A stretch of DNA of 64,000 nucleotides from Escherichia phage vB_EcoM_G2133. Shown here piece after piece: positions 5,873 to 58,839 of the stretch. Under the pieces are notes generated by a model, which was not told the DNA's origin, searched no databases, and worked only from the letters and a program-made list of their open reading frames with translations. The DNA lies in sequence record MK327928.1. One strand, 5' to 3'. The translations under genes and the position numbers were made by a program. How positions within the stretch are numbered: position 1 is the first letter of the stretch; each line of letters starts with the position of its first letter.

Positions 5873-6142
5873 TTAATTAAACAGTGGAGCGATACGTTTC
5901 AGAAGAGTAGCAGCACCTTTAGCGAATTTTACATCATGAAAAACAGTTTCTTCTTCTGTAACAACTCGAACTTTAATATTTTCACAATCCCAATTTTTAC
6001 GAACAATCTTCAAAAGCTGCAGTAAATCTTTACATTCAGCAATATCGATAACACATCCACGAGAATCTTCCATTATCGCACGATAACCGTAAGCCATACC
6101 ATAATCGTTGAAAGATTGCTCGATGATAATTAAGTTTTCCAT
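5873..6142 (-). CDS. hypothetical protein (likely start at ATG 6142; track start 6154 is TTG)
   Basis: GGAG 8 nt upstream of ATG; leader shared with ORF 51169..52137. Confidence 0.45.
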   Translation of the reverse strand: MENLIIIEQSFNDYGMAYGYRAIMEDSRGCVIDIAECKDLLQLLKIVRKNWDCENIKVRVVTEEETVFHDVKFAKGAATLLKRIAPLFN

Positions 6143-6166
6143 TTTATTCTCCAAGTTGTTTTCTGT

Positions 6167-6209
6167 ATCAGTAGTTGATATTGATATAGTACCATAATCA
6201 ACTACTGAT
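6167..6209. repeat. perfect 13-bp inverted repeat (atcagtagttgat / atcaactactgat) around a promoter -10-like box
   Basis: arms 6167-6179 and 6197-6209, 17-bp spacer containing tatagtacc. Confidence 0.8.
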
Positions 6210-6239
6210 GTATATAGTTTTATGAAAAAATTTTAAACT

Positions 6240-6728
6240 TTATGCATAGAGAGCATTGCTATAGTGTTTAATCCAACTTTCAGGAATGACTTTGTATGTT
6301 CCTAAAAATACCACGTTGTACAACTTAACGCCATCTTCTACCCATTGATCGGTAATGTATGCACACATAGCGCGAGTATAAACAGCCTTTCCATCATCTT
6401 TGATAAATTTAAATTCGCAAGGAGCAACGAACTTAATAGCTTGACCGAGTTTCCACTTAAAGTCTACACCTACATGCGAAGTATCAATCGTTTCAATTCC
6501 TTTAGCAGGAACAGCTTTCAAAAACGCAGACTCAAGAAATTTCGCACGAACATAGCCAAACTGAGGTTTAGACTTTCCATCTTTAGGAATGATACGCACT
6601 TTTACTTCAGAATCTTCATCTTTAACACCGTGTTTAAGCTGAATGCTTACAATTTCGACCAATTTTCCTGCTGCTTTAGAACGGGATTTATCAGATACAC
6701 GAGCTAATTCACCAATATTAATAATCAT
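6240..6728 (-). CDS. motB: MotB-like protein
   Basis: 162-aa ORF at the T4 motB position; C-terminus paralogous to ORF 6805..7338. Confidence 0.55.
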   Translation of the reverse strand: MIINIGELARVSDKSRSKAAGKLVEIVSIQLKHGVKDEDSEVKVRIIPKDGKSKPQFGYVRAKFLESAFLKAVPAKGIETIDTSHVGVDFKWKLGQAIKFVAPCEFKFIKDDGKAVYTRAMCAYITDQWVEDGVKLYNVVFLGTYKVIPESWIKHYSNALYA

Positions 6729-18523: not shown

Positions 18524-18816
18524 TATTCACCTACTACTTCAGCGATGATATTTTTATTATTAAAGTTTTTATCGCAATACAGAACATAATTATACTGCAT
18601 TACACCACCAGACTTAAGCTGTTTTTGCACTTCAGCTTTCATTTCAGGGCGATCGCGCTCAACGATATTCATAATATCTGCTTCAATTTGAGTTTCAACC
18701 TCAGTCTGATCTGCCGTCATAGACCATTCGCACAAATCTTTATCATAACCTGCCATAGCAGGCTGAGCAGCACAAGAAGCTAAAGCAAAAATTGTGGCAA
18801 AGATAAATTTTTTCAT
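18523..18816 (-). CDS. sp: Spackle-like periplasmic protein
   Basis: 97 aa with cleavable signal peptide MKKFIFATIFALASCAAQPAMA. Confidence 0.65.
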   Translation of the reverse strand: MKKFIFATIFALASCAAQPAMAGYDKDLCEWSMTADQTEVETQIEADIMNIVERDRPEMKAEVQKQLKSGGVMQYNYVLYCDKNFNNKNIIAEVVGE

Positions 18817-18844
18817 GATAATCTCCTCAGTAGTTTATGTTTAT

Positions 18845-18874
18845 ATAGTATCTCAATTTCCAACAAAAGTAAAC
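18845..18874 (-). promoter_or_regulatory. early promoter variant (-10 TACTAT)
   Basis: GTTTAC (18874..18869), 18-bp spacer, TACTAT. Confidence 0.4.
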
Positions 18875-18876
18875 AG

Positions 18877-19134
18877 TTATTTTAAAACTTCTGCGTAATC
18901 ACATGTTACAAACTGTTTCTCTAACTTGACGATTTTACGAAAGTATCTTTTGCATTGGCGAATCTGCCGCTTCGTAGGGCGAACAGCAAACTTAATAAAT
19001 TCCACTCGACCAAATGGAGGGATTTCTTCTGCTGGAATATCTAACACCAATTCCCACGTATCTGCAATAAGTGCTTTGAATTGCGTATTTTTCCTGACGT
19101 TATACGGAGTAGGTTTAAATAAAACAATATGCAT
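18877..19134 (-). CDS. hypothetical protein (likely start ATG 19134, TAATATG junction with dmd)
   Basis: 85 aa from MHIVLF; track ORF 18877..19176 overlaps dmd. Confidence 0.45.
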   Translation of the reverse strand: MHIVLFKPTPYNVRKNTQFKALIADTWELVLDIPAEEIPPFGRVEFIKFAVRPTKRQIRQCKRYFRKIVKLEKQFVTCDYAEVLK

Positions 19135-19318: not shown

Positions 19319-19347
19319 AACAATCTCCTCATTTAACCAACAAGACT

Positions 19348-19377
19348 ACTATACCATAGTCTTGTCAGCTTGTAAAC
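19348..19377 (-). promoter_or_regulatory. T4-type early promoter (-10 TATAGT)
   Basis: GTTTAC (19377..19372), 18-bp spacer, tatggTATAGT. Confidence 0.5.
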
Positions 19378-25033: not shown

Positions 25034-25414
25034 TCACTTAGTCAAATTTTTTACACATGAATTATAAGAATTTACTACATACTCCATCGGAGCATTTTTA
25101 CCAGTACGCCATTGGTAATTATTAGCCCAATTAGCCCAAAGTTCGGCGCAGTAGTTTTCAATTTTTTCTTCGCGTGTAATTACATCCGAATTACGATATG
25201 CTTGAACAGATTCATCTGGACGAATAGCTTCGTCAAAATTCGCCTGCATTTGTTCTACTGTTTGCTTTGGAGCTTCTTTATAACACTTGACATTAGGATT
25301 ATAAAATTTGCTTGAACAGTTTACAATTTTTCCTACATCAGACTGATTTACTACCGGTCCTTGAGCTACACAACCAGTAAGACCTAATGCAATAACCAAA
25401 ATAGCGATTTTCAT
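25034..25414 (-). CDS. predicted lipoprotein (imm.1-like)
   Basis: 126 aa; signal peptide with lipobox LTGC. Confidence 0.5.
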   Translation of the reverse strand: MKIAILVIALGLTGCVAQGPVVNQSDVGKIVNCSSKFYNPNVKCYKEAPKQTVEQMQANFDEAIRPDESVQAYRNSDVITREEKIENYCAELWANWANNYQWRTGKNAPMEYVVNSYNSCVKNLTK

Positions 25415-25448
25415 TTCATTCTCTAAATCCGTATCAGTTGATAGTTGT

Positions 25449-25478
25449 ATAGTACCACAGAAGAACAGTCTTGTAAAC
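25449..25478 (-). promoter_or_regulatory. early promoter variant (-10 TACTAT), member of a repeated promoter-leader family
   Basis: GTTTAC (25478..25473), 18-bp spacer, gtggTACTATAC. Confidence 0.45.
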
Positions 25479-25566
25479 AGTTTTGTGAAAAATTTTTTAG
25501 GGAATTCTAAAGGTCCAGAATCATCTGTTTTTCATAAGTATAGATTTATATTACTTGTATGAAAAA

Positions 25567-25582
25567 GGGACCCGGAGGTCCC
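25567..25582 (-). terminator. stem-loop gggacc-cgga-ggtccc downstream of gene 43
   Basis: 6-bp G/C stem, 4-nt loop, 14 nt after the gp43 stop. Confidence 0.5.
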
Positions 25583-25595
25583 TAGATTTATTCTA

Positions 25596-28292
25596 TCAGC
25601 CAAACAGGAAGTCTAACGAAGCTTTTTCTTCATAGTCCATACCAGCCGATTCACACATACCTGCAAGCGGTTTAACAAACGATTTTTGGAACAAAGTTGA
25701 GTAGTCAATCCAAGATAGTACATCAGAACGAATTTCTTTTGGAAGTTCTGTACCTGATGGCCAAGCAATGCACTTGTCACCAAATGGATTTCCTTCACGT
25801 AATGGAAGAACCATTACTTTATTTCCATCCAAAATTGGAGCTACACCTAAACCGTTAACAGCTCGACGATAAGTTAGCACACCACGAATATGGAACGGGC
25901 ATTTAAATCCTGGCCAACCTTTATCATCATATTTCGCTATATCGTTCGCAGTTTTTACTTCAGCAATAACTTTATAGTCAAGTTGACGATATTCTTTCTC
26001 GAAGTTCTTGTAATATTCTTGGACAGACTCTTCACCTTCCTGAAGAATACGACGAATACTTTCTTCGAGAGCTTCTTGTACTGCTTTTGGTGTTGAACTC
26101 TGTTGAGTTTCCATACCCATGATTTTTAGATGCGGTTCAGCAAATCGCTTATCTTCCATATCATAAACGTTCAGAGCATAACGTTTTTTCGCTTTCCAAA
26201 ATCCGCCAACGCCCTTTGAACCAAGTGGAGGACAAGAAATAGCTTCACGGTCCATATGCATCAGATGCTCGCGGTTATTCATATAATCACATAACTCACG
26301 ATATGCAACATCAATCATAGGTTCCATCTTTTTCTTACCGAACTGATTCATGAATTCAACTAAATCGTTCTGCTCTTTAAAACGGTCAAGACCAACTTTT
26401 TCAATAACTTTATCTACGCAAACATATACCGAATCAGTATCACCTGCTGCGATGAAATCTTCACCGTTAGTTCCGCATACTTTATTCAGATATTCATTAA
26501 TTTTACGAGCAATCCACTGAATACCGACTTGACCAAAAATTGTGATAGCAGTAGCATTTCGCAAATCATAGTAACGGAAATGAATATTACCAAGAGCACC
26601 ATAAAGACTGTTAATAAGAATTTTACGGTTCAGCTGATTTGTATTAGCAAGTGTAGCCGCTTTTTCACATTCCTCAATCAGACTATTGAGAACAGATTCG
26701 GTGTAATTCGACAGTTCATTTAAAAAATCATCAGTGAACTTAACATATCGTTCAACTTCTGGTTTAGTTGAACAAGACCCTGCGCCTTTCATAATAATCT
26801 TTTTAATAGCTTCGGCATTCATTTCTTCAGCGAACATTTTCTTTTTCCAATCTTTACGCTGGAAAAATACTTTAGCGATTTCCTTTGGAATGATACCTTC
26901 TTGGTGCTTATCATACATCCATCCATTCGGAGAGCAAGAATATTCATCACTTGGCTTAGGAGCCGTTCCTGCGATATATTCATGAATTGGATGAACTTTA
27001 AACTGCCCACGAATAGTCTCAGGACTAATGTTAACCTGACGAATAATGCTAGGATACAGAGACGTCAAGTCAAAACTCATAATGTATCGACGAGCAATCG
27101 GTTTAGGTTCAAATACAAATGCACCTGGAAAACTCTGTTTAACGTGCGAACCTTGTTGAGGAATAACCTTATGTTCACCTTTCAGTGAGTTAAAAATAAT
27201 AGCATCCCAAGTTTTAATAGGACTCATTACACCAGAAAAAGGCATTTTAGCGTAATAAGACATACTTAAAACTAGATCGATAAACCCGCGAATTTTATCA
27301 ATTGCTTGAACTGATTCTACGTCAATGATGTTATAACTAATGTATCGTTGATGATTAGTCTCACGAAGTTTATTAATAGGACCGTCGTATGGTAATTTAC
27401 CTTTTTTGGTTTCATGTTGAGCAACTGATTCCAAAGAGAATGACGGCAAATTAGTAAAAGCAAATTTCTTGTACAAATCTAAATAATCAAGAATAGATAC
27501 GCCATCAATAGAATAAATTTCTTTGCTACCGTACATATTTTGAATTAGTTTAGATTTTACCCGACCGATTGGAGAGAAACGTTTCATACTGCGTTCACCT
27601 AGAATCATTTTAACACGATTCATGATATATGGAACGTCAAACCCCTCAATATTCCAACCAGTAAAAATAGCAGGTCGTTTCTGTTCCCAGAGATTGATAT
27701 ATTCCATGAGCATATCACGCTCATTATCGAATGGCATATAAATTACTCGGTCAAGAATTTCTTGAGGAACTTCATCACCACCTTCACAGTCAAGCTTAGC
27801 AGCTAACTTTGCATCCCATTTTGATACTGAACCATACATTGAATTCAAAAGGTCGAAAACATAAAAACGATCATCAATTGAATCATAATGAGTGATAGCA
27901 TCAATTTCATATTCAGCTTTCATTGGGTCAGGAAATTTATCACCAGTAACCTCAATGTCACAGTTAGCTACACGAACAAATTTTCGGTCATAAACAATTT
28001 CTGAACCATACGTATCACTGATATAAGCGAGTTTAAAATCGTTCATACCGAGAGCTTCGAGACCGATGTCTTCCATTCGCTTCATCCAATCTCGAGCATC
28101 TTTCATTGATGGAAATTTTTGAGGAGCGCAGTTTTTACCGTAGATGTCTTTGTATTTTGACTCTTCCTTACAATGCCTAAACATAGTCGGAAGATATTCT
28201 ACTTCACGAGTACGTTCCTTTCCGTTTTCATCAATATAACGTTCAACAATGTTATTTCCGACTGTTTCAATAGAGATATAAAATTCTTTCAT
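25596..28292 (-). CDS. 43: DNA polymerase gp43 (family B)
   Basis: 898 aa; MKEFYISIETVGNNI; 3'-5' exo motifs and polymerase motif AAGDTDSVYV. Confidence 0.9.
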   Translation of the reverse strand: MKEFYISIETVGNNIVERYIDENGKERTREVEYLPTMFRHCKEESKYKDIYGKNCAPQKFPSMKDARDWMKRMEDIGLEALGMNDFKLAYISDTYGSEIVYDRKFVRVANCDIEVTGDKFPDPMKAEYEIDAITHYDSIDDRFYVFDLLNSMYGSVSKWDAKLAAKLDCEGGDEVPQEILDRVIYMPFDNERDMLMEYINLWEQKRPAIFTGWNIEGFDVPYIMNRVKMILGERSMKRFSPIGRVKSKLIQNMYGSKEIYSIDGVSILDYLDLYKKFAFTNLPSFSLESVAQHETKKGKLPYDGPINKLRETNHQRYISYNIIDVESVQAIDKIRGFIDLVLSMSYYAKMPFSGVMSPIKTWDAIIFNSLKGEHKVIPQQGSHVKQSFPGAFVFEPKPIARRYIMSFDLTSLYPSIIRQVNISPETIRGQFKVHPIHEYIAGTAPKPSDEYSCSPNGWMYDKHQEGIIPKEIAKVFFQRKDWKKKMFAEEMNAEAIKKIIMKGAGSCSTKPEVERYVKFTDDFLNELSNYTESVLNSLIEECEKAATLANTNQLNRKILINSLYGALGNIHFRYYDLRNATAITIFGQVGIQWIARKINEYLNKVCGTNGEDFIAAGDTDSVYVCVDKVIEKVGLDRFKEQNDLVEFMNQFGKKKMEPMIDVAYRELCDYMNNREHLMHMDREAISCPPLGSKGVGGFWKAKKRYALNVYDMEDKRFAEPHLKIMGMETQQSSTPKAVQEALEESIRRILQEGEESVQEYYKNFEKEYRQLDYKVIAEVKTANDIAKYDDKGWPGFKCPFHIRGVLTYRRAVNGLGVAPILDGNKVMVLPLREGNPFGDKCIAWPSGTELPKEIRSDVLSWIDYSTLFQKSFVKPLAGMCESAGMDYEEKASLDFLFG

Positions 28293-47755: not shown

Positions 47756-47785
47756 ATTATACCACATCCTTGTGGCAAAGTAAAC
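47756..47785 (-). promoter_or_regulatory. T4-type early promoter, near-identical to 2484..2513
   Basis: GTTTAC-tttgccacaaggatgtgg-TATAAT. Confidence 0.6.
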
Positions 47786-50176: not shown

Positions 50177-50704
50177 TTATGCGAGTACCGTCTTTAACCG
50201 TTCTTCAAACTTCCGAAGAGTATTCTGGCGTTCAGCTCTTTGCTTTTTGTAAGTTTCAATACGCTCTGAAATGAGAGTGTATCGTTCATTTACTGATTCT
50301 TTCATAAAATCAGGAATTTCACGAGAAGCTTTAATCTCGTCAAATTTATCAATAACAGCTTGCTCTTCAGCAATTAAGTTATCATACATCAAAATATCTT
50401 TCTTGATGAACTCAATATCTTCTTGAGTTACACGAGATAATTTAGATGCTTTATCCTTTTTGTACTGTTCGTTAGTATCACGAGACCAGTGTAATGTACG
50501 ATTTTTATTCGTATTCTTGTAAATTTCTACAATACCAATCTCATCGATAATAACGATCCAATTCCAACGGGATTTGTAAATTTGTCCTCCATCAACAGTG
50601 ATTTCACCTCCAATTGAGATGTCATTAAAGAACTTGCTTTGTGCTTCAGATTTAAATTTACCATCGTTGTAATTTACCAGGTTGAAAATATCTTTAGCGT
50701 TCAT
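50177..50704 (-). CDS. hypothetical protein (start ATG 50704)
   Basis: 175 aa from MNAKDIFNL; GGAGG ribosome-binding site. Confidence 0.45.
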   Translation of the reverse strand: MNAKDIFNLVNYNDGKFKSEAQSKFFNDISIGGEITVDGGQIYKSRWNWIVIIDEIGIVEIYKNTNKNRTLHWSRDTNEQYKKDKASKLSRVTQEDIEFIKKDILMYDNLIAEEQAVIDKFDEIKASREIPDFMKESVNERYTLISERIETYKKQRAERQNTLRKFEERLKTVLA

Positions 50705-50732
50705 TTTGTGTTCCTCCGTAGTTGATAGTTGT

Positions 50733-50762
50733 ATAGTACCACAGAGGAACAGTCTTGTAAAC
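50733..50762 (-). promoter_or_regulatory. early promoter variant (-10 TACTAT), repeated promoter-leader family
   Basis: GTTTAC (50762..50757), 18-bp spacer, gtggTACTATAC. Confidence 0.45.
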
Positions 50763-50764
50763 AA

Positions 50765-51067
50765 CTAAAAGAAACTTCTTTCACAATTTTTTCCACTGAA
50801 CCAAGCGCTCACTGCTTTCTTAGTCTCAGGAGCAGTGTTATCCATAAACCATTCAAAGGCAGCCTTTTTATGATTCTGGAGGGCTTCTCGGGCTTTAATC
50901 TGCTCACGGTCTATTAACACTAACATATGAGCCTTTCTTGTCACCAGGGGCTTCTTATGATTTTTTGAATACTCCCAATCATTTGTCCATCGCATCGTTG
51001 TTGCGAACTGAAATACTGCTTCTTTAATTTTAGTTTCGTAAATTTCACGAGCCTTTGAGTATAACAT
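50765..51067 (-). CDS. hypothetical protein (start ATG 51067)
   Basis: 100 aa from MLYSKAREIYE; GGAGG ribosome-binding site. Confidence 0.4.
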   Translation of the reverse strand: MLYSKAREIYETKIKEAVFQFATTMRWTNDWEYSKNHKKPLVTRKAHMLVLIDREQIKAREALQNHKKAAFEWFMDNTAPETKKAVSAWFSGKNCERSFF

Positions 51068-51168: not shown

Positions 51169-52137
51169 TTATTTCAGAAGAGTAACCTCAGCAATTTCTT
51201 CCCAACCGTTTTTGTCGGTCATAATAAAGTCAGCAAGATAAAGTGCAGTACGCAGTGAAACATTGCGTAAACGGTTAACATTGACTTTCATCCATGATAA
51301 TGCTTTATAAGTTTCTTCATCAGAAAGACCGCGCTTTTGCATCATGTCGGTTGAAAGAATAACATCTTCAACCCTGACCATAATTTCTTCATTAGTGTGA
51401 ACACCCAAATCTAAATAAACTGAGCGGGACACTAATGCTTGTAAATGTGGAGCAAGTTTAGTACCACGGTCTAATTCGCGGTCAATATCAACGTTTGTGA
51501 TAAAAACAATCGTTCCTTTAAATTCAAACTCACGCTCAATGCCTTTTTCTTCTAAGTAAGAAGATGCAGTGCTCCAGCAGACTTTACGGGTCTCTCCAGT
51601 GTCCAGAGCAGCTTTCAGAAGATTAAGAATGTCCATATCAGAGAAAACATCCACATCATCAATCAAAAGGACAGAATTCTCTTCACGATTATTCCAGAGC
51701 TGTTCATAAAGACCGATACCAGAGATTTTACCGTTAATGCTTTTATATTCAATGTATCCAATATCATTTGCTTTATTTAAAGCTTTATCTAAAGAATACG
51801 TTTTACCAATACCTGCTGCTCCCGAGATAATTAATGAACGAATGTTTCCGTTAATAATACCATTCGTCATCATTCCCATAACATTAAATCTTTTATTAAT
51901 GCGGGTTTTCATATCTTCATATGATTCTTTAACTTCTTCAACTTTTACACCATCATATGAAATGTCTGATTTGTAAACCCAAACACCGCGACGTTTACCG
52001 TCAATTTCAACAAAAACTTTACCATCTCCTTGTGCATCTACTGGAGCATTATCTGGGAACCATTCGCCTAAGAGCTCAAAAGTTCCAGAGATTTCTTTAC
52101 CGAAGTAGATACCCTTATTGATAGTTACAGTTTTCAT
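51169..52137 (-). CDS. P-loop ATPase (AAA-like)
   Basis: 322 aa from MKTVTINKG; Walker A GAAGIGKT; Walker B LLIDDVD. Confidence 0.55.
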   Translation of the reverse strand: MKTVTINKGIYFGKEISGTFELLGEWFPDNAPVDAQGDGKVFVEIDGKRRGVWVYKSDISYDGVKVEEVKESYEDMKTRINKRFNVMGMMTNGIINGNIRSLIISGAAGIGKTYSLDKALNKANDIGYIEYKSINGKISGIGLYEQLWNNREENSVLLIDDVDVFSDMDILNLLKAALDTGETRKVCWSTASSYLEEKGIEREFEFKGTIVFITNVDIDRELDRGTKLAPHLQALVSRSVYLDLGVHTNEEIMVRVEDVILSTDMMQKRGLSDEETYKALSWMKVNVNRLRNVSLRTALYLADFIMTDKNGWEEIAEVTLLK

Positions 52138-52174
52138 TTTATTCTCCAAATCTGTATCAGTAGTTGATAGTTGT

Positions 52175-52204
52175 ATAGTACCATAAAGCTTTATGCTTGT
52201 AAAC
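52175..52204 (-). promoter_or_regulatory. early promoter variant (-10 TACTAT), repeated promoter-leader family
   Basis: GTTTAC (52204..52199), 18-bp spacer, TACTATAC. Confidence 0.45.
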
Positions 52205-52235
52205 CGTTTTGTGAAAAAATTTTTGAAATAAAAAA

Positions 52236-52253
52236 GGGGACCTCTAAGGCCCC
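52236..52253 (-). terminator. G/C stem-loop with one bulge
   Basis: ggggacc-tctaa-ggcccc after the stop of ORF 52263..52748. Confidence 0.4.
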
Positions 52254-52262
52254 TTTATGCTT

Positions 52263-52748
52263 TTATTCCATTTCTATTATATGCATGTTCTTTTTGCTAT
52301 CAAAATATATGTTTTTAACTGTTAACTCCGAATTAATTGGCAATAAAAACTCTCTTTCATAATCTACCATACAAAGGTTATCATAAAGCTTGTTAAGCTT
52401 ATCATCGTCAGTTTGGCCAGATTCTTCAATTGCGATTAAATTTTCTAAAATGTCAATCATAGCAGTCGAATAGTCAAAAACGTTTGCATTTTTTAACACT
52501 ACTAAAACATTAGTCATATAGCGTTCTGCAGCAAACGTTTCAGCTATATGAGACTCACTGCTAAAGGAAGTTATTCTTTTAAATTTGATTCTCCTATTAA
52601 CTTCAAACTTATAAGATAGCACTTCCTCTATTGTAAGTCCTCTAAAAAGTGTGTCTTTAATCTCAAGTTTGTCTTTAATGTAATCATTAACACGCTTATG
52701 ATTAAAATTATTAATTTTGTTGCCAAGGCATTGCATTAAAATATGCAT
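52263..52748 (-). CDS. hypothetical protein
   Basis: 161-aa ORF. Confidence 0.45.
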   Translation of the reverse strand: MHILMQCLGNKINNFNHKRVNDYIKDKLEIKDTLFRGLTIEEVLSYKFEVNRRIKFKRITSFSSESHIAETFAAERYMTNVLVVLKNANVFDYSTAMIDILENLIAIEESGQTDDDKLNKLYDNLCMVDYEREFLLPINSELTVKNIYFDSKKNMHIIEME

Positions 52749-52794
52749 TGTATTCTCCTCAATTTTTAAAGAGCAATTAATTAACTACACGTAT

Positions 52795-52824
52795 ATTATA
52801 ATATGCTTTGCGGCAGAAGTAAAC
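52795..52824 (-). promoter_or_regulatory. T4-type early promoter
   Basis: GTTTAC (52824..52819), 18-bp spacer, TATAAT (52800..52795). Confidence 0.55.
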
Positions 52825-52854
52825 AACTTTGTGACGTCATTTTAAACAAAAAAA

Positions 52855-52870
52855 GGAGCCCGAAGGCTCC
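52855..52870 (-). terminator. stem-loop ggagcc-cgaa-ggctcc
   Basis: 6-bp stem, UUCG loop, after the stop of ORF 52874..53884. Confidence 0.5.
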
Positions 52871-52873
52871 CTA

Positions 52874-55256: not shown

Positions 55257-55535
55257 TTAATCCTTTTTATTTGCGCTGATTTGTTCTAAAATTTTAGAGT
55301 ATTCCTTTGTATCAGATTTACGTACAATCGATACGCTATACGGCATACTATCGGTGTCTTTTATAAAGCGTTCCAAATGACACTCTAATAAAATTTCTGG
55401 ATTATAAATCGTGTACATCAAATTACCTGTTGCTCCACGATATTGACAGATTTCTACTGATTGAACATCATTCCATAATTTTGTTAAGACCAAATCACCT
55501 ACTTCTAATTTAGGAAAGCCCATGTTATTCACCAA
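55257..55535 (-). CDS. hypothetical protein
   Basis: 92-aa ORF. Confidence 0.45.
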   Translation of the reverse strand: MVNNMGFPKLEVGDLVLTKLWNDVQSVEICQYRGATGNLMYTIYNPEILLECHLERFIKDTDSMPYSVSIVRKSDTKEYSKILEQISANKKD

Positions 55536-55710: not shown

Positions 55711-55842
55711 TACATACTCCTTTGAATAATATCAATAATGTTGTTCACTAGATTATAAGTAAACATTGGGTAATTATATTGAATCATCACATACACAACA
55801 AACAAAACTTTCATTCTCTTCTCCTTGACAGTTGACAAGATT

Positions 55843-55872
55843 ACTATACCATAACCTTGCCAACTTGTAAAC
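55843..55872 (-). promoter_or_regulatory. T4-type early promoter (-10 TATAGT)
   Basis: GTTTAC (55872..55867), 18-bp spacer, tatggTATAGT. Confidence 0.5.
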
Positions 55873-56234: not shown

Positions 56235-56438
56235 TTAAACTCTCGTATTATGATCGATAATTTCATCAAGAAACATATCTAACGCTTCTAAAGCATTATC
56301 AACTTTAGCTTCAAGTTCATCAGCACCTTTATTTGCAATGCCTGACGAAAACCAAGCAAAGTCACTAAGTTCCTCGTCTGCCTTGCGAATTGAAGCCACT
56401 AATTCCTTGATTTTATCCGCTTGCTCTACACTAATCAT
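56235..56438 (-). CDS. hypothetical small protein (start ATG 56438, TAATG junction)
   Basis: 67 aa from [14 protein letters not shown]. Confidence 0.4.
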   Translation of the reverse strand: MISVEQADKIKELVASIRKADEELSDFAWFSSGIANKGADELEAKVDNALEALDMFLDEIIDHNTRV

Positions 56439-56626
56439 TATTCCACCACATATGAAAGAGAGAATATTGCACACGCCATGTGAGTTGCAACTTCATCACA
56501 CATATTATAACGTTTCTTAAGAAGTTCTACAAGTTTTTCACTGGTAACTTCATCCATGTTGACGAAAAAATCACCATTAATGATGACGTAGATATTTCCT
56601 TCTTGATTAAGTGCTTCAATTTTCAT
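56438..56626 (-). CDS. hypothetical small protein (start ATG 56626)
   Basis: 62 aa from [11 protein letters not shown]; GAGGAG ribosome-binding site. Confidence 0.4.
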
Positions 56627-56654
56627 GATGTTCTCCTCTTTATCCGATGGTTGT

Positions 56655-56684
56655 ATAGTACCACGGCTCAAACGAAAAGTAAAC
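56655..56684 (-). promoter_or_regulatory. early promoter variant (-10 TACTAT), repeated promoter-leader family
   Basis: GTTTAC (56684..56679), 18-bp spacer, gtggTACTATAC. Confidence 0.45.
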
Positions 56685-56699
56685 AGGTAAAATGAAAAA

Positions 56700-56717
56700 A
56701 GTCTCCCGAAGGAGACT
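56700..56717 (-). terminator. stem-loop agtctcc-cgaa-ggagact
   Basis: 7-bp stem, UUCG loop, 5 nt after the stop of ORF 56722..57108. Confidence 0.5.
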
Positions 56718-58615: not shown

Positions 58616-58839
58616 TTTGGTTTGCCTTCTTTAACGAAATCAGGATAAGGATAAAATCCCGAATAAAATCCTTCACCTTTATGATTGATGCATCCTTTAT
58701 TAGAACAATAGCACCAATAATCGAAATCACAAGCCATTTCATCATTACATAAAGCAAAAACAACAGGCCATTTACACTTTTCACAATGGGCATTTTTAAG
58801 AATACTAGTTTGGCTCATAACCATGTAACCTTTAAGCAA
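58612..58839 (-). CDS. Cys-rich small protein
   Basis: 75 aa; CEKCKW...CYCSNKGC. Confidence 0.4.
   Translation of the reverse strand: MLKGYMVMSQTSILKNAHCEKCKWPVVFALCNDEMACDFDYWCYCSNKGCINHKGEGFYSGFYPYPDFVKEGKPK

Follow-up and report, generated by a model that had tools for sequence, protein, structure and literature searches.

The window analyzed here (the whole stretch of DNA under study) comprises 64,000 nt of Escherichia phage vB_EcoM_G2133 (MK327928.1). T2 and T2-like Tequatrovirus genomes are 96.9-97.7% identical to it when compared over a 4-kb stretch around the nrdC.8 promoter. Gene order is that of T2 and T4 from rIIA to the e region, with nrdC, tk, and regB in between, and the region of regB is syntenic in T2. 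Every gene in the window lies on the minus strand, which is therefore the strand on which to read the promoter-leader blocks found upstream of imm.1, nrdC.8, nrdC.10, mobD.5, and an 89-aa open reading frame (ORF) located between cef and motB (Table 1). At the rIIA end, a perfect 55-bp tandem duplication was observed at 522-631 (two copies, 100% identical). The gene, which T2 and T4 have as one ORF of 2178 nt, is split by it into ORFs 520-2244 and 12-545. The duplication junction was present in 0 of 392 matching phage records; the duplication is either a frameshift mutant or an assembly artefact.

Table 1. Genes, promoter-leader elements, and neighboring features in the window (SD, Shine-Dalgarno sequence; +1, predicted transcription start).
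Feature	Position (nt)	Strand	Remarks
89-aa ORF between cef and motB	5873-6142	-	downstream of the rearranged copy
Rearranged copy ahead of the cef-motB 89-aa ORF	6143..6242	-	inverted repeat around the -10
Rearranged copy, parts	-35-like ATATAC 6210-6215; -10 TACTAT 6186-6191	-	leader ATCAACTACTGATACAG
Rearranged copy, RegB/S1 consensus	6152-6142	-	GGAGAATAAAA, perfect
sp (spackle) early promoter	18812..18899	-	weaker sixth member; GTTTAC 18869-18874; TACTAT 18845-18850; then ATAAACATAAACTACTGAGGAG
imm.1	25034-25414	-	gene downstream of family promoter
imm.1 promoter and leader	25415..25503	-	T4 ortholog at 27059
imm.1 promoter, parts	UP-like A/T tract 25479-25503; -35 GTTTAC 25473-25478; -10 TACTAT 25449-25454	-	18-nt spacer ends in TGG
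imm.1 start region	block 25436-25448; predicted +1 25442; ATG 25414-25412	-	block ACAACTATCAACT
Terminator-type hairpin and T-run after gene 43	25560..25582	-	GGGACCtccgGGTCCC; ~80 nt upstream of imm.1 promoter
nrdC.8	50177-50704	-	gene downstream of family promoter
nrdC.8 promoter and leader	50705..50787	-	orthologous site annotated 'promoter' in MT682714.1
nrdC.8 promoter, parts	-35 50757-50762; -10 TACTAT 50733-50738; block 50720-50732	-	
nrdC.8 start region	predicted +1 50726; ATG 50704-50702	-	SD GGAGG
nrdC.10	51169-52137	-	gene downstream of family promoter
nrdC.10 promoter and leader	52138..52229	-	'promoter' in MT682714.1; 100% identical in phage PST
nrdC.10 promoter, parts	-35 52199-52204; -10 TACTAT 52175-52180; block 52162-52174	-	UP tract TTTCAAAAATTTTTTCACAAAACG
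nrdC.10 start region	predicted +1 52168; RegB/S1 consensus 52147-52137; ATG 52137-52135	-	RegB/S1 consensus GGAGAATAAAA, perfect
Intrinsic-terminator hairpin and T-run	52228..52253	-	GGGGCCttagaGGTCCCC; abuts nrdC.10 promoter; 3' end of ModA-like cassette
Self-contained cassette (ModA-like)	52263..52872	-	absent from T4 and PST; present in window and T2
ModA-like cassette, parts	terminator hairpin 52853-52872; early promoter GTTTAC-N18-TATAAT 52795-52824; 161-aa ORF 52263-52748	-	
mobD.5	56438-56626	-	gene downstream of family promoter
mobD.5 promoter and leader	56627..56717	-	T4 ortholog at 58759
mobD.5 promoter, parts	terminator hairpin 56700-56717; -35 56679-56684; -10 TACTAT 56655-56660	-	
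mobD.5 start region	diverged block 56642-56654; predicted +1 56648; ATG 56626-56624	-	block ACAACCATCGGAT; SD GAGGAG

On the minus strand, the family is laid out as GTTTAC, an 18-nt spacer, TACTAT, ACAACTATCAACT, and finally a Shine-Dalgarno (SD) sequence and ATG. The first-pass annotation had described a family of near-identical promoter-leader elements at five loci, and a sequence check found the reported blocks at all five of the positions it had given. A chance origin of the repeats is ruled out by shuffle controls: with one mismatch allowed, the 19-mer GATAGTTGTATAGTACCAC has four occurrences (at 25440, 50724, 52166, and 56646), where 0.02 are expected, and the minus-strand 22-mer TGGTACTATACAACTATCAACT occurs three times exactly and once more, at 6173-6194, with three mismatches, where 0.00 are expected. 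A weaker sixth member, at 18845-18874 upstream of sp, had been missing from the list. Almost verbatim recurrence had been reported for 25427-25478, 50711-50762, 52151-52204, and 56641-56684. Between the imm.1 and nrdC.8 copies, which have their spacer in common as well, identity reaches 98% across the 43 nt that begin with GTTTAC and end with ATCAACT. The mobD.5 copy (56641-56684) is clearly more diverged, at 58-67% identity over 43 nt and with an unrelated spacer. The copy at 6161-6215 is rearranged as had been noted, since its -35 reads ATATAC and its leader sequence ATCAACTACTGAT recurs in inverted orientation ahead of the -10.

The extent of the identity was judged from a MAFFT alignment of the six copies, as the annotation had proposed, together with a zone-by-zone comparison in the window. 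Identity is not limited to the -35 and -10 hexamers: the 13 nt that follow the -10 are 85% alike within the family versus 37% in other early-promoter pairs. With the +1 predicted at the A of ATCAACT (taking the -10 at -12 to -7), this shared 13-nt block consists of 6 nt of discriminator and the first seven transcribed bases. Transcription is predicted to include no more than ~7 of these 13 nucleotides, and a longer leader, ACTGATACRGA...GGAGAATAAAATG, is found in just three of the copies, those of imm.1, nrdC.10, and the cef-motB ORF. The family copies have an invariant 21-nt core in common, TGGTACTATACAACTATCAAC, which runs from TGG and the -10 through the discriminator into the initial transcribed bases. 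The five to six copies are shown here to be one lineage among the ~20 early promoters of the window.

T4 early promoters (Pe) have GTTTAC at -36 to -31 and T-12, A-11, and T-7 (PMC1524935), along with a GT-rich extended -10 and an A-rich UP-like tract (PMC1524935; PMC2988021). The reading of the repeats as minus-strand promoter-leaders with GTTTAC, an 18-nt spacer, and TACTAT fits this layout well (PMC1524935, PMC4122927). The pattern GTTTAC-N18-TAnnnT has 21 sites in the window versus 0.89 expected; all of them (21/21) are on the minus strand, and most lie 20-45 nt upstream of an SD-ATG. A generic sigma-70 scan of the window gave no signal (42 sites versus 40.7 expected), so that the T4-specific pattern is needed. 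TACTAT had been called an atypical -10, which it is not among T-even phages: it fits the TAYWAT of the PST/T4 consensus for PeSL (promoter-early stem-loop) elements, TTTACW-N17-TAYWAT (PMC4122927), and is the second commonest -10 in the window. The -35 is a perfect GTTTAC in the imm.1, nrdC.8, nrdC.10, mobD.5, and sp copies, and ATATAC (4/6) in the rearranged copy, which may depend on its extended -10 or be a weak promoter because this -35 is poor. The five copies listed initially all have TGG and TACTAT 18 nt past the -35, and the sp copy has AGA in place of TGG. At about -40 to -60, a UP tract of the AAAAATTTTTTCACAAAAC type precedes the imm.1, nrdC.10, and rearranged copies; the corresponding tracts of nrdC.8 and mobD.5 are A/T-rich but of other sequences.

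The agreement with T4 Pe thus comprises GTTTAC at -36 to -31, the 18-nt gap, the TGn and TAnnnT of the -10, and the A/T-rich UP tract, as well as the orientation and the place ahead of early genes, with orthologous T4 copies before imm.1, nrdC.8, nrdC.10, and mobD.5. Nothing essential differs, G2133 having a T2-like version with TACTAT versus TATAAT and a degenerate -35 in the rearranged copy. The orthologous 30-nt elements before nrdC.10 and nrdC.8 are annotated 'promoter' in MT682714.1, with a 'terminator' just upstream. Indirect support for a start directly upon infection, ahead of phage protein synthesis, comes from T4, where a reverse-transcriptase stop obtained with RNA from infected cells was assigned to the mobD.5 promoter (PMC1702504) and RNA-seq expression counts at 5 min exist for the orthologs (DksA paper data). 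From the consensus and the orthology to T4, we infer promoter activity and the +1 positions in G2133.

Part of the leader identity corresponds to the RegB/S1 cleavage consensus GGAGAAUAAAA, the optimal RegB/S1 target in T4 (Durand et al. 2006, PMC1702504); the longer leader of three copies has GGAGAATAAAATG as its end. In the whole window, GGAGRAYARAA (consensus from PMC1702504) is matched perfectly at two places only, the leaders of nrdC.10 and the cef-motB ORF, where the exact T4 optimum lies over the SD and ATG; nrdC.8 has GGAGG. Counted by position, these two candidate sites agree with the 11-mer at 11/11 nucleotides and the nrdC.8 leader at 8/11. The feature is not family-wide, however. 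The SD region of imm.1 in the window reads AGAGAAT, and the GGA of the T4 version has therefore been lost; the mobD.5 SD site, GGAGAACATCA, departs from the consensus. For T4 itself, moderate RegB cleavage at the nrdC.8 site and insensitivity of the mobD.5 transcript to RegB have been reported (PMC1702504). The suggested co-regulation through a shared leader consequently stands at the level of the promoter class only, because the copies differ in RegB-site features: the leaders are different, and so is the RegB sensitivity of their T4 counterparts (PMC1702504). The imm.1 and nrdC.10 leaders differ by a 3-nt ACT unit (CAACTACTGATAC versus CAACTGATAC), which is swapped between the two genes when the window is compared with T4 (window 25415-25435 versus T4 27014-27040; window 52138-52161 versus T4 55321-55342). 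Slippage in ACTACT or conversion between copies could account for this swap.

Several of the promoters are accompanied by stem-loops. Terminator-type hairpins followed by T-runs lie upstream of three copies, abutting the nrdC.10 and mobD.5 promoters and standing ~80 nt off at imm.1. In the rearranged copy, an inverted repeat of 13-20 bp (6167-6186 with 6190-6209) encloses the -10 (-20.2 kcal/mol, z -5.7). At nrdC.8, the spacer (50738-50751) pairs with the leader and SD (50709-50722), again enclosing the -10 (-10.4 kcal/mol, z -4.3), and the arms of this stem are invariant among the copies collected. The nrdC.8-type spacer and leader travel together in three gene contexts, namely nrdC.8, T2_046, and an ORF of an IMG/VR contig (L114). 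The nrdC.8 SD (GGAGG) would then be masked in read-through transcripts and free in transcripts from its own promoter. Translation starts that are masked in read-through transcripts are known for the T4 genes e, soc, and 49. As in those genes, the SD of nrdC.8 pairs with sequence upstream of the proximal start site, and the consequence would be alike in that only transcripts from the proximal promoter would have a free SD. The difference is that e, soc, and 49 have late or middle promoters inside early units, whereas the proximal promoter predicted at nrdC.8 is an early one.

Two further promoter pairs were observed in the window. The first, 19340-19365 and 55835-55860, is of the form GTTTAC-N18-TATAGT, is 79% identical, and is separate from the TACTAT family. 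In each of its members a ~15-bp hairpin surrounds the -10 (-18.2 kcal/mol in either case; z -4.9 and -6.1), with changes on both sides preserving the stem from one copy to the other; the pair is a PeSL subclass with a stem overlapping the -10. The second, 2484-2513 and 47756-47785, has a near-identical spacer, tttRccacaaggatgtgg, with a small palindrome, CCACAaggaTGTGG. This third group of related promoters shows early-promoter sub-families to be a general feature of the G2133 genome.

A PeSL is a composite of a promoter, an adjacent or overlapping stem-loop, and the SD-ATG of a small non-essential ORF (PMC2839356). The elements described here resemble PeSLs (Arbiol et al. 2010, PMC2839356; Comeau et al. 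2014, PMC4122927) in combining an early promoter, a stem-loop, and an SD-ATG, in clustering in hyperplastic regions, and in that indel and replacement junctions between close relatives fall within the elements. In addition, the PST/T4 consensus covers TACTAT, and the nrdC.10 element is 100% identical in PST. They differ in their stems, which are AT-richer or ordinary terminators compared with the G4...C4 stems of RB49 and phi1, and in the hairpin of imm.1, which is ~80 nt away from the promoter. Mini-circle formation is reported to have been shown for RB49 and phi1 only. A second precedent is provided by the repeats of the T-even internal-protein (IP) loci (Repoila et al. 1994, as described in PMC2839356), where conserved T4-type early promoter/leader repeats likewise flank interchangeable small genes and AT-rich stem-loops are present, although other loci are concerned. 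Taken with the promoter layout, it is very probable that the repeats are early promoters with short 5' leaders, several of them with an upstream terminator hairpin, that is, PeSL-type cassettes. The repeat family is in this sense already known, having been described as T-even early promoters and PeSL cassettes.

The family is not confined to G2133. T4 has copies at the orthologous sites 6609, 27059, 53922, 55363, and 58759, plus one at 70675 before e.8, and T2 also carries family elements at orthologous sites. The 88-nt nrdC.10 element was found in 543 phage records at 3359 places, or ~6-7 per genome, essentially all of them in T-even phages. Because T4 and T2 have elements at orthologous sites, the family is old within Tequatrovirus. 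Of the earlier suggestion that it had spread recently by recombination, the recombination is supported by exchange seen in cross-phage comparisons, but the spread is not recent in this genome.

Such exchange is seen at two places in particular. In T2, the gene 43/imm.1 locus includes an additional ORF of 83 aa, T2_046, preceded by a promoter-leader that is identical to the nrdC.8 type; on its left side this insertion joins within the shared block, and a search of the window and of T4 1-76 kb gave no homolog of T2_046. The window and T2, but not T4 and PST, have a complete terminator/promoter/ORF/terminator unit between nrdC.11 and nrdC.10; its 161-aa ORF is annotated in T2 records as (putative) ModA/RNA polymerase ADP-ribosylase, and the indel junction of this cassette lies in the repeated terminator T-tract/UP sequence CCTTTTTTATTTCAAAA. 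On a broader scale, 43 family members were gathered by matching the invariant block in the window, T4, T2, and 30 IMG/VR contigs, the IMG/VR 15-mer scan having given 119 matches, most of them fortuitous, of which 89 without promoter context were discarded. The 21 spacer/leader/gene combinations of these members draw on six types of spacer, seven types of leader, and 13 or more downstream genes; the invariance of the block within this set is circular because the set was collected by that block. Similarity among family members typically ends right after ACAACTATCAA. This distribution, compared across sequences, shows spacers, leaders, and genes shuffled around an invariant block, which is the PeSL-mediated modular shuffling of Arbiol et al. 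and Comeau et al. An early promoter adjoins only 3-4 of the 19 indels that distinguish the window from T4, and homing-endonuclease genes make up many of the rest. Cassette recombination therefore accounts for part of the plasticity, not for most of it.

The invariance of the block could also come from selection on promoter function alone. In a stronger form of this argument, which we regard as rather unlikely, the block (TACTAT, the ACAACT discriminator, and the ATCAAC start) would define a distinct early-promoter subclass that is held by selection instead of by descent and recombination. Candidate properties under selection are the lifetime of the open complex, promoter escape, the response to polymerase ADP-ribosylated by Alt or ModA, and the binding of an unnamed factor. 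It is consistent with such a subclass that the block is identical at non-orthologous loci and in T4, T2, PST, and metagenomic contigs while both flanks vary. The Hinton review further reports that T4 early promoters with identical -35, TGn, and -10 elements respond differently to Alt and that extra consensus regions exist in T4 early promoters (PMC2988021). However, the discriminators and start regions of ~15 further early promoters in the window are unrelated, and early promoter function therefore does not require the block. Arbitrary spacer sequence is also common to other pairs of promoters (2513/47785 and 19377/55872), which looks like homology and not like convergence, and no discriminator motif tracked DksA sensitivity (Patterson-West and Hinton). 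Selection for a subclass and the Pe/PeSL lineage explanation are not mutually exclusive. That the 21-nt core TGGTACTATACAACTATCAAC marks a distinct regulatory or recombinational subclass beyond the shared promoter lineage seems improbable to us. If it did, its discriminator/start region could give a specific response to ADP-ribosylated RNA polymerase or some early factor, or the core could be a preferred crossover site that targets gene cassettes. On the same improbable reading, the pairing of spacer and SD in the nrdC.8-type version might confine translation to transcripts from the proximal early promoter.

It is highly improbable that the five genes are co-regulated after transcription by the conserved leader acting as a structured cis-regulatory RNA, be it a riboswitch, an attenuator, or a small-RNA target. 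The identity does run into the transcribed region, and the stems of the nrdC.8 and rearranged copies are significant, but these stems can form only in read-through RNA or DNA because their 5' arm lies upstream of the predicted +1. The predicted leaders themselves (+1 to just past ATG) are unstructured, folding no better than shuffles (minimum free energy 0 to -3.3 kcal/mol, z -0.5 to +1.1), and an Rfam scan of the whole window matched no family; on these two grounds the structured leader was rejected. The leaders also diverge among copies past ~7 nt, and the T4 members differ in RegB sensitivity (PMC1702504). MotA/AsiA-dependent middle promoters, which share the sigma-70-type -10 with TGn in many cases and whose MotA box ((a/t)(a/t)(a/t)TGCTTtA) is centred at -30, 11-13 nt from the -10, and replaces the -35 (PMC2988021, PMC1524935), are extremely improbable and were rejected on position, since no copy has a MotA box at -30, a perfect GTTTAC fills -36 to -31 in four copies, and the MotA-box-like AAGCTTTA in the nrdC.10 spacer ends its GCTT-like string 3 nt short of the -10 and does not occur in the other copies.

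Under the reading as PeSL-type early promoters, and following the published T4 model, host sigma-70 RNA polymerase would bind the UP tract, GTTTAC, the TGn extended -10, and TACTAT immediately after infection, and transcription would begin ~7 nt past the -10, at the A of ATCAACT. The resulting leader would be ~20-35 nt long and unstructured, with a strong GGAG-type SD that in some copies would double as a RegB/S1 cleavage site, later inactivating the early mRNA. The upstream hairpin would insulate each unit from read-through transcription. The block would persist as the working promoter core, and the 20-90-bp patches of identity would act as crossover sites for phage homologous recombination, by which promoter-gene cassettes would be moved.

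The promoter pattern places ~20 early-region transcription units of a T2-like phage. The family furthermore illustrates how a single promoter core has come to precede 13 or more different genes in T-even phages, and PeSL-type cassettes of this kind are regarded as drivers of the gene shuffling that takes place in hyperplastic regions of T4-like genomes.
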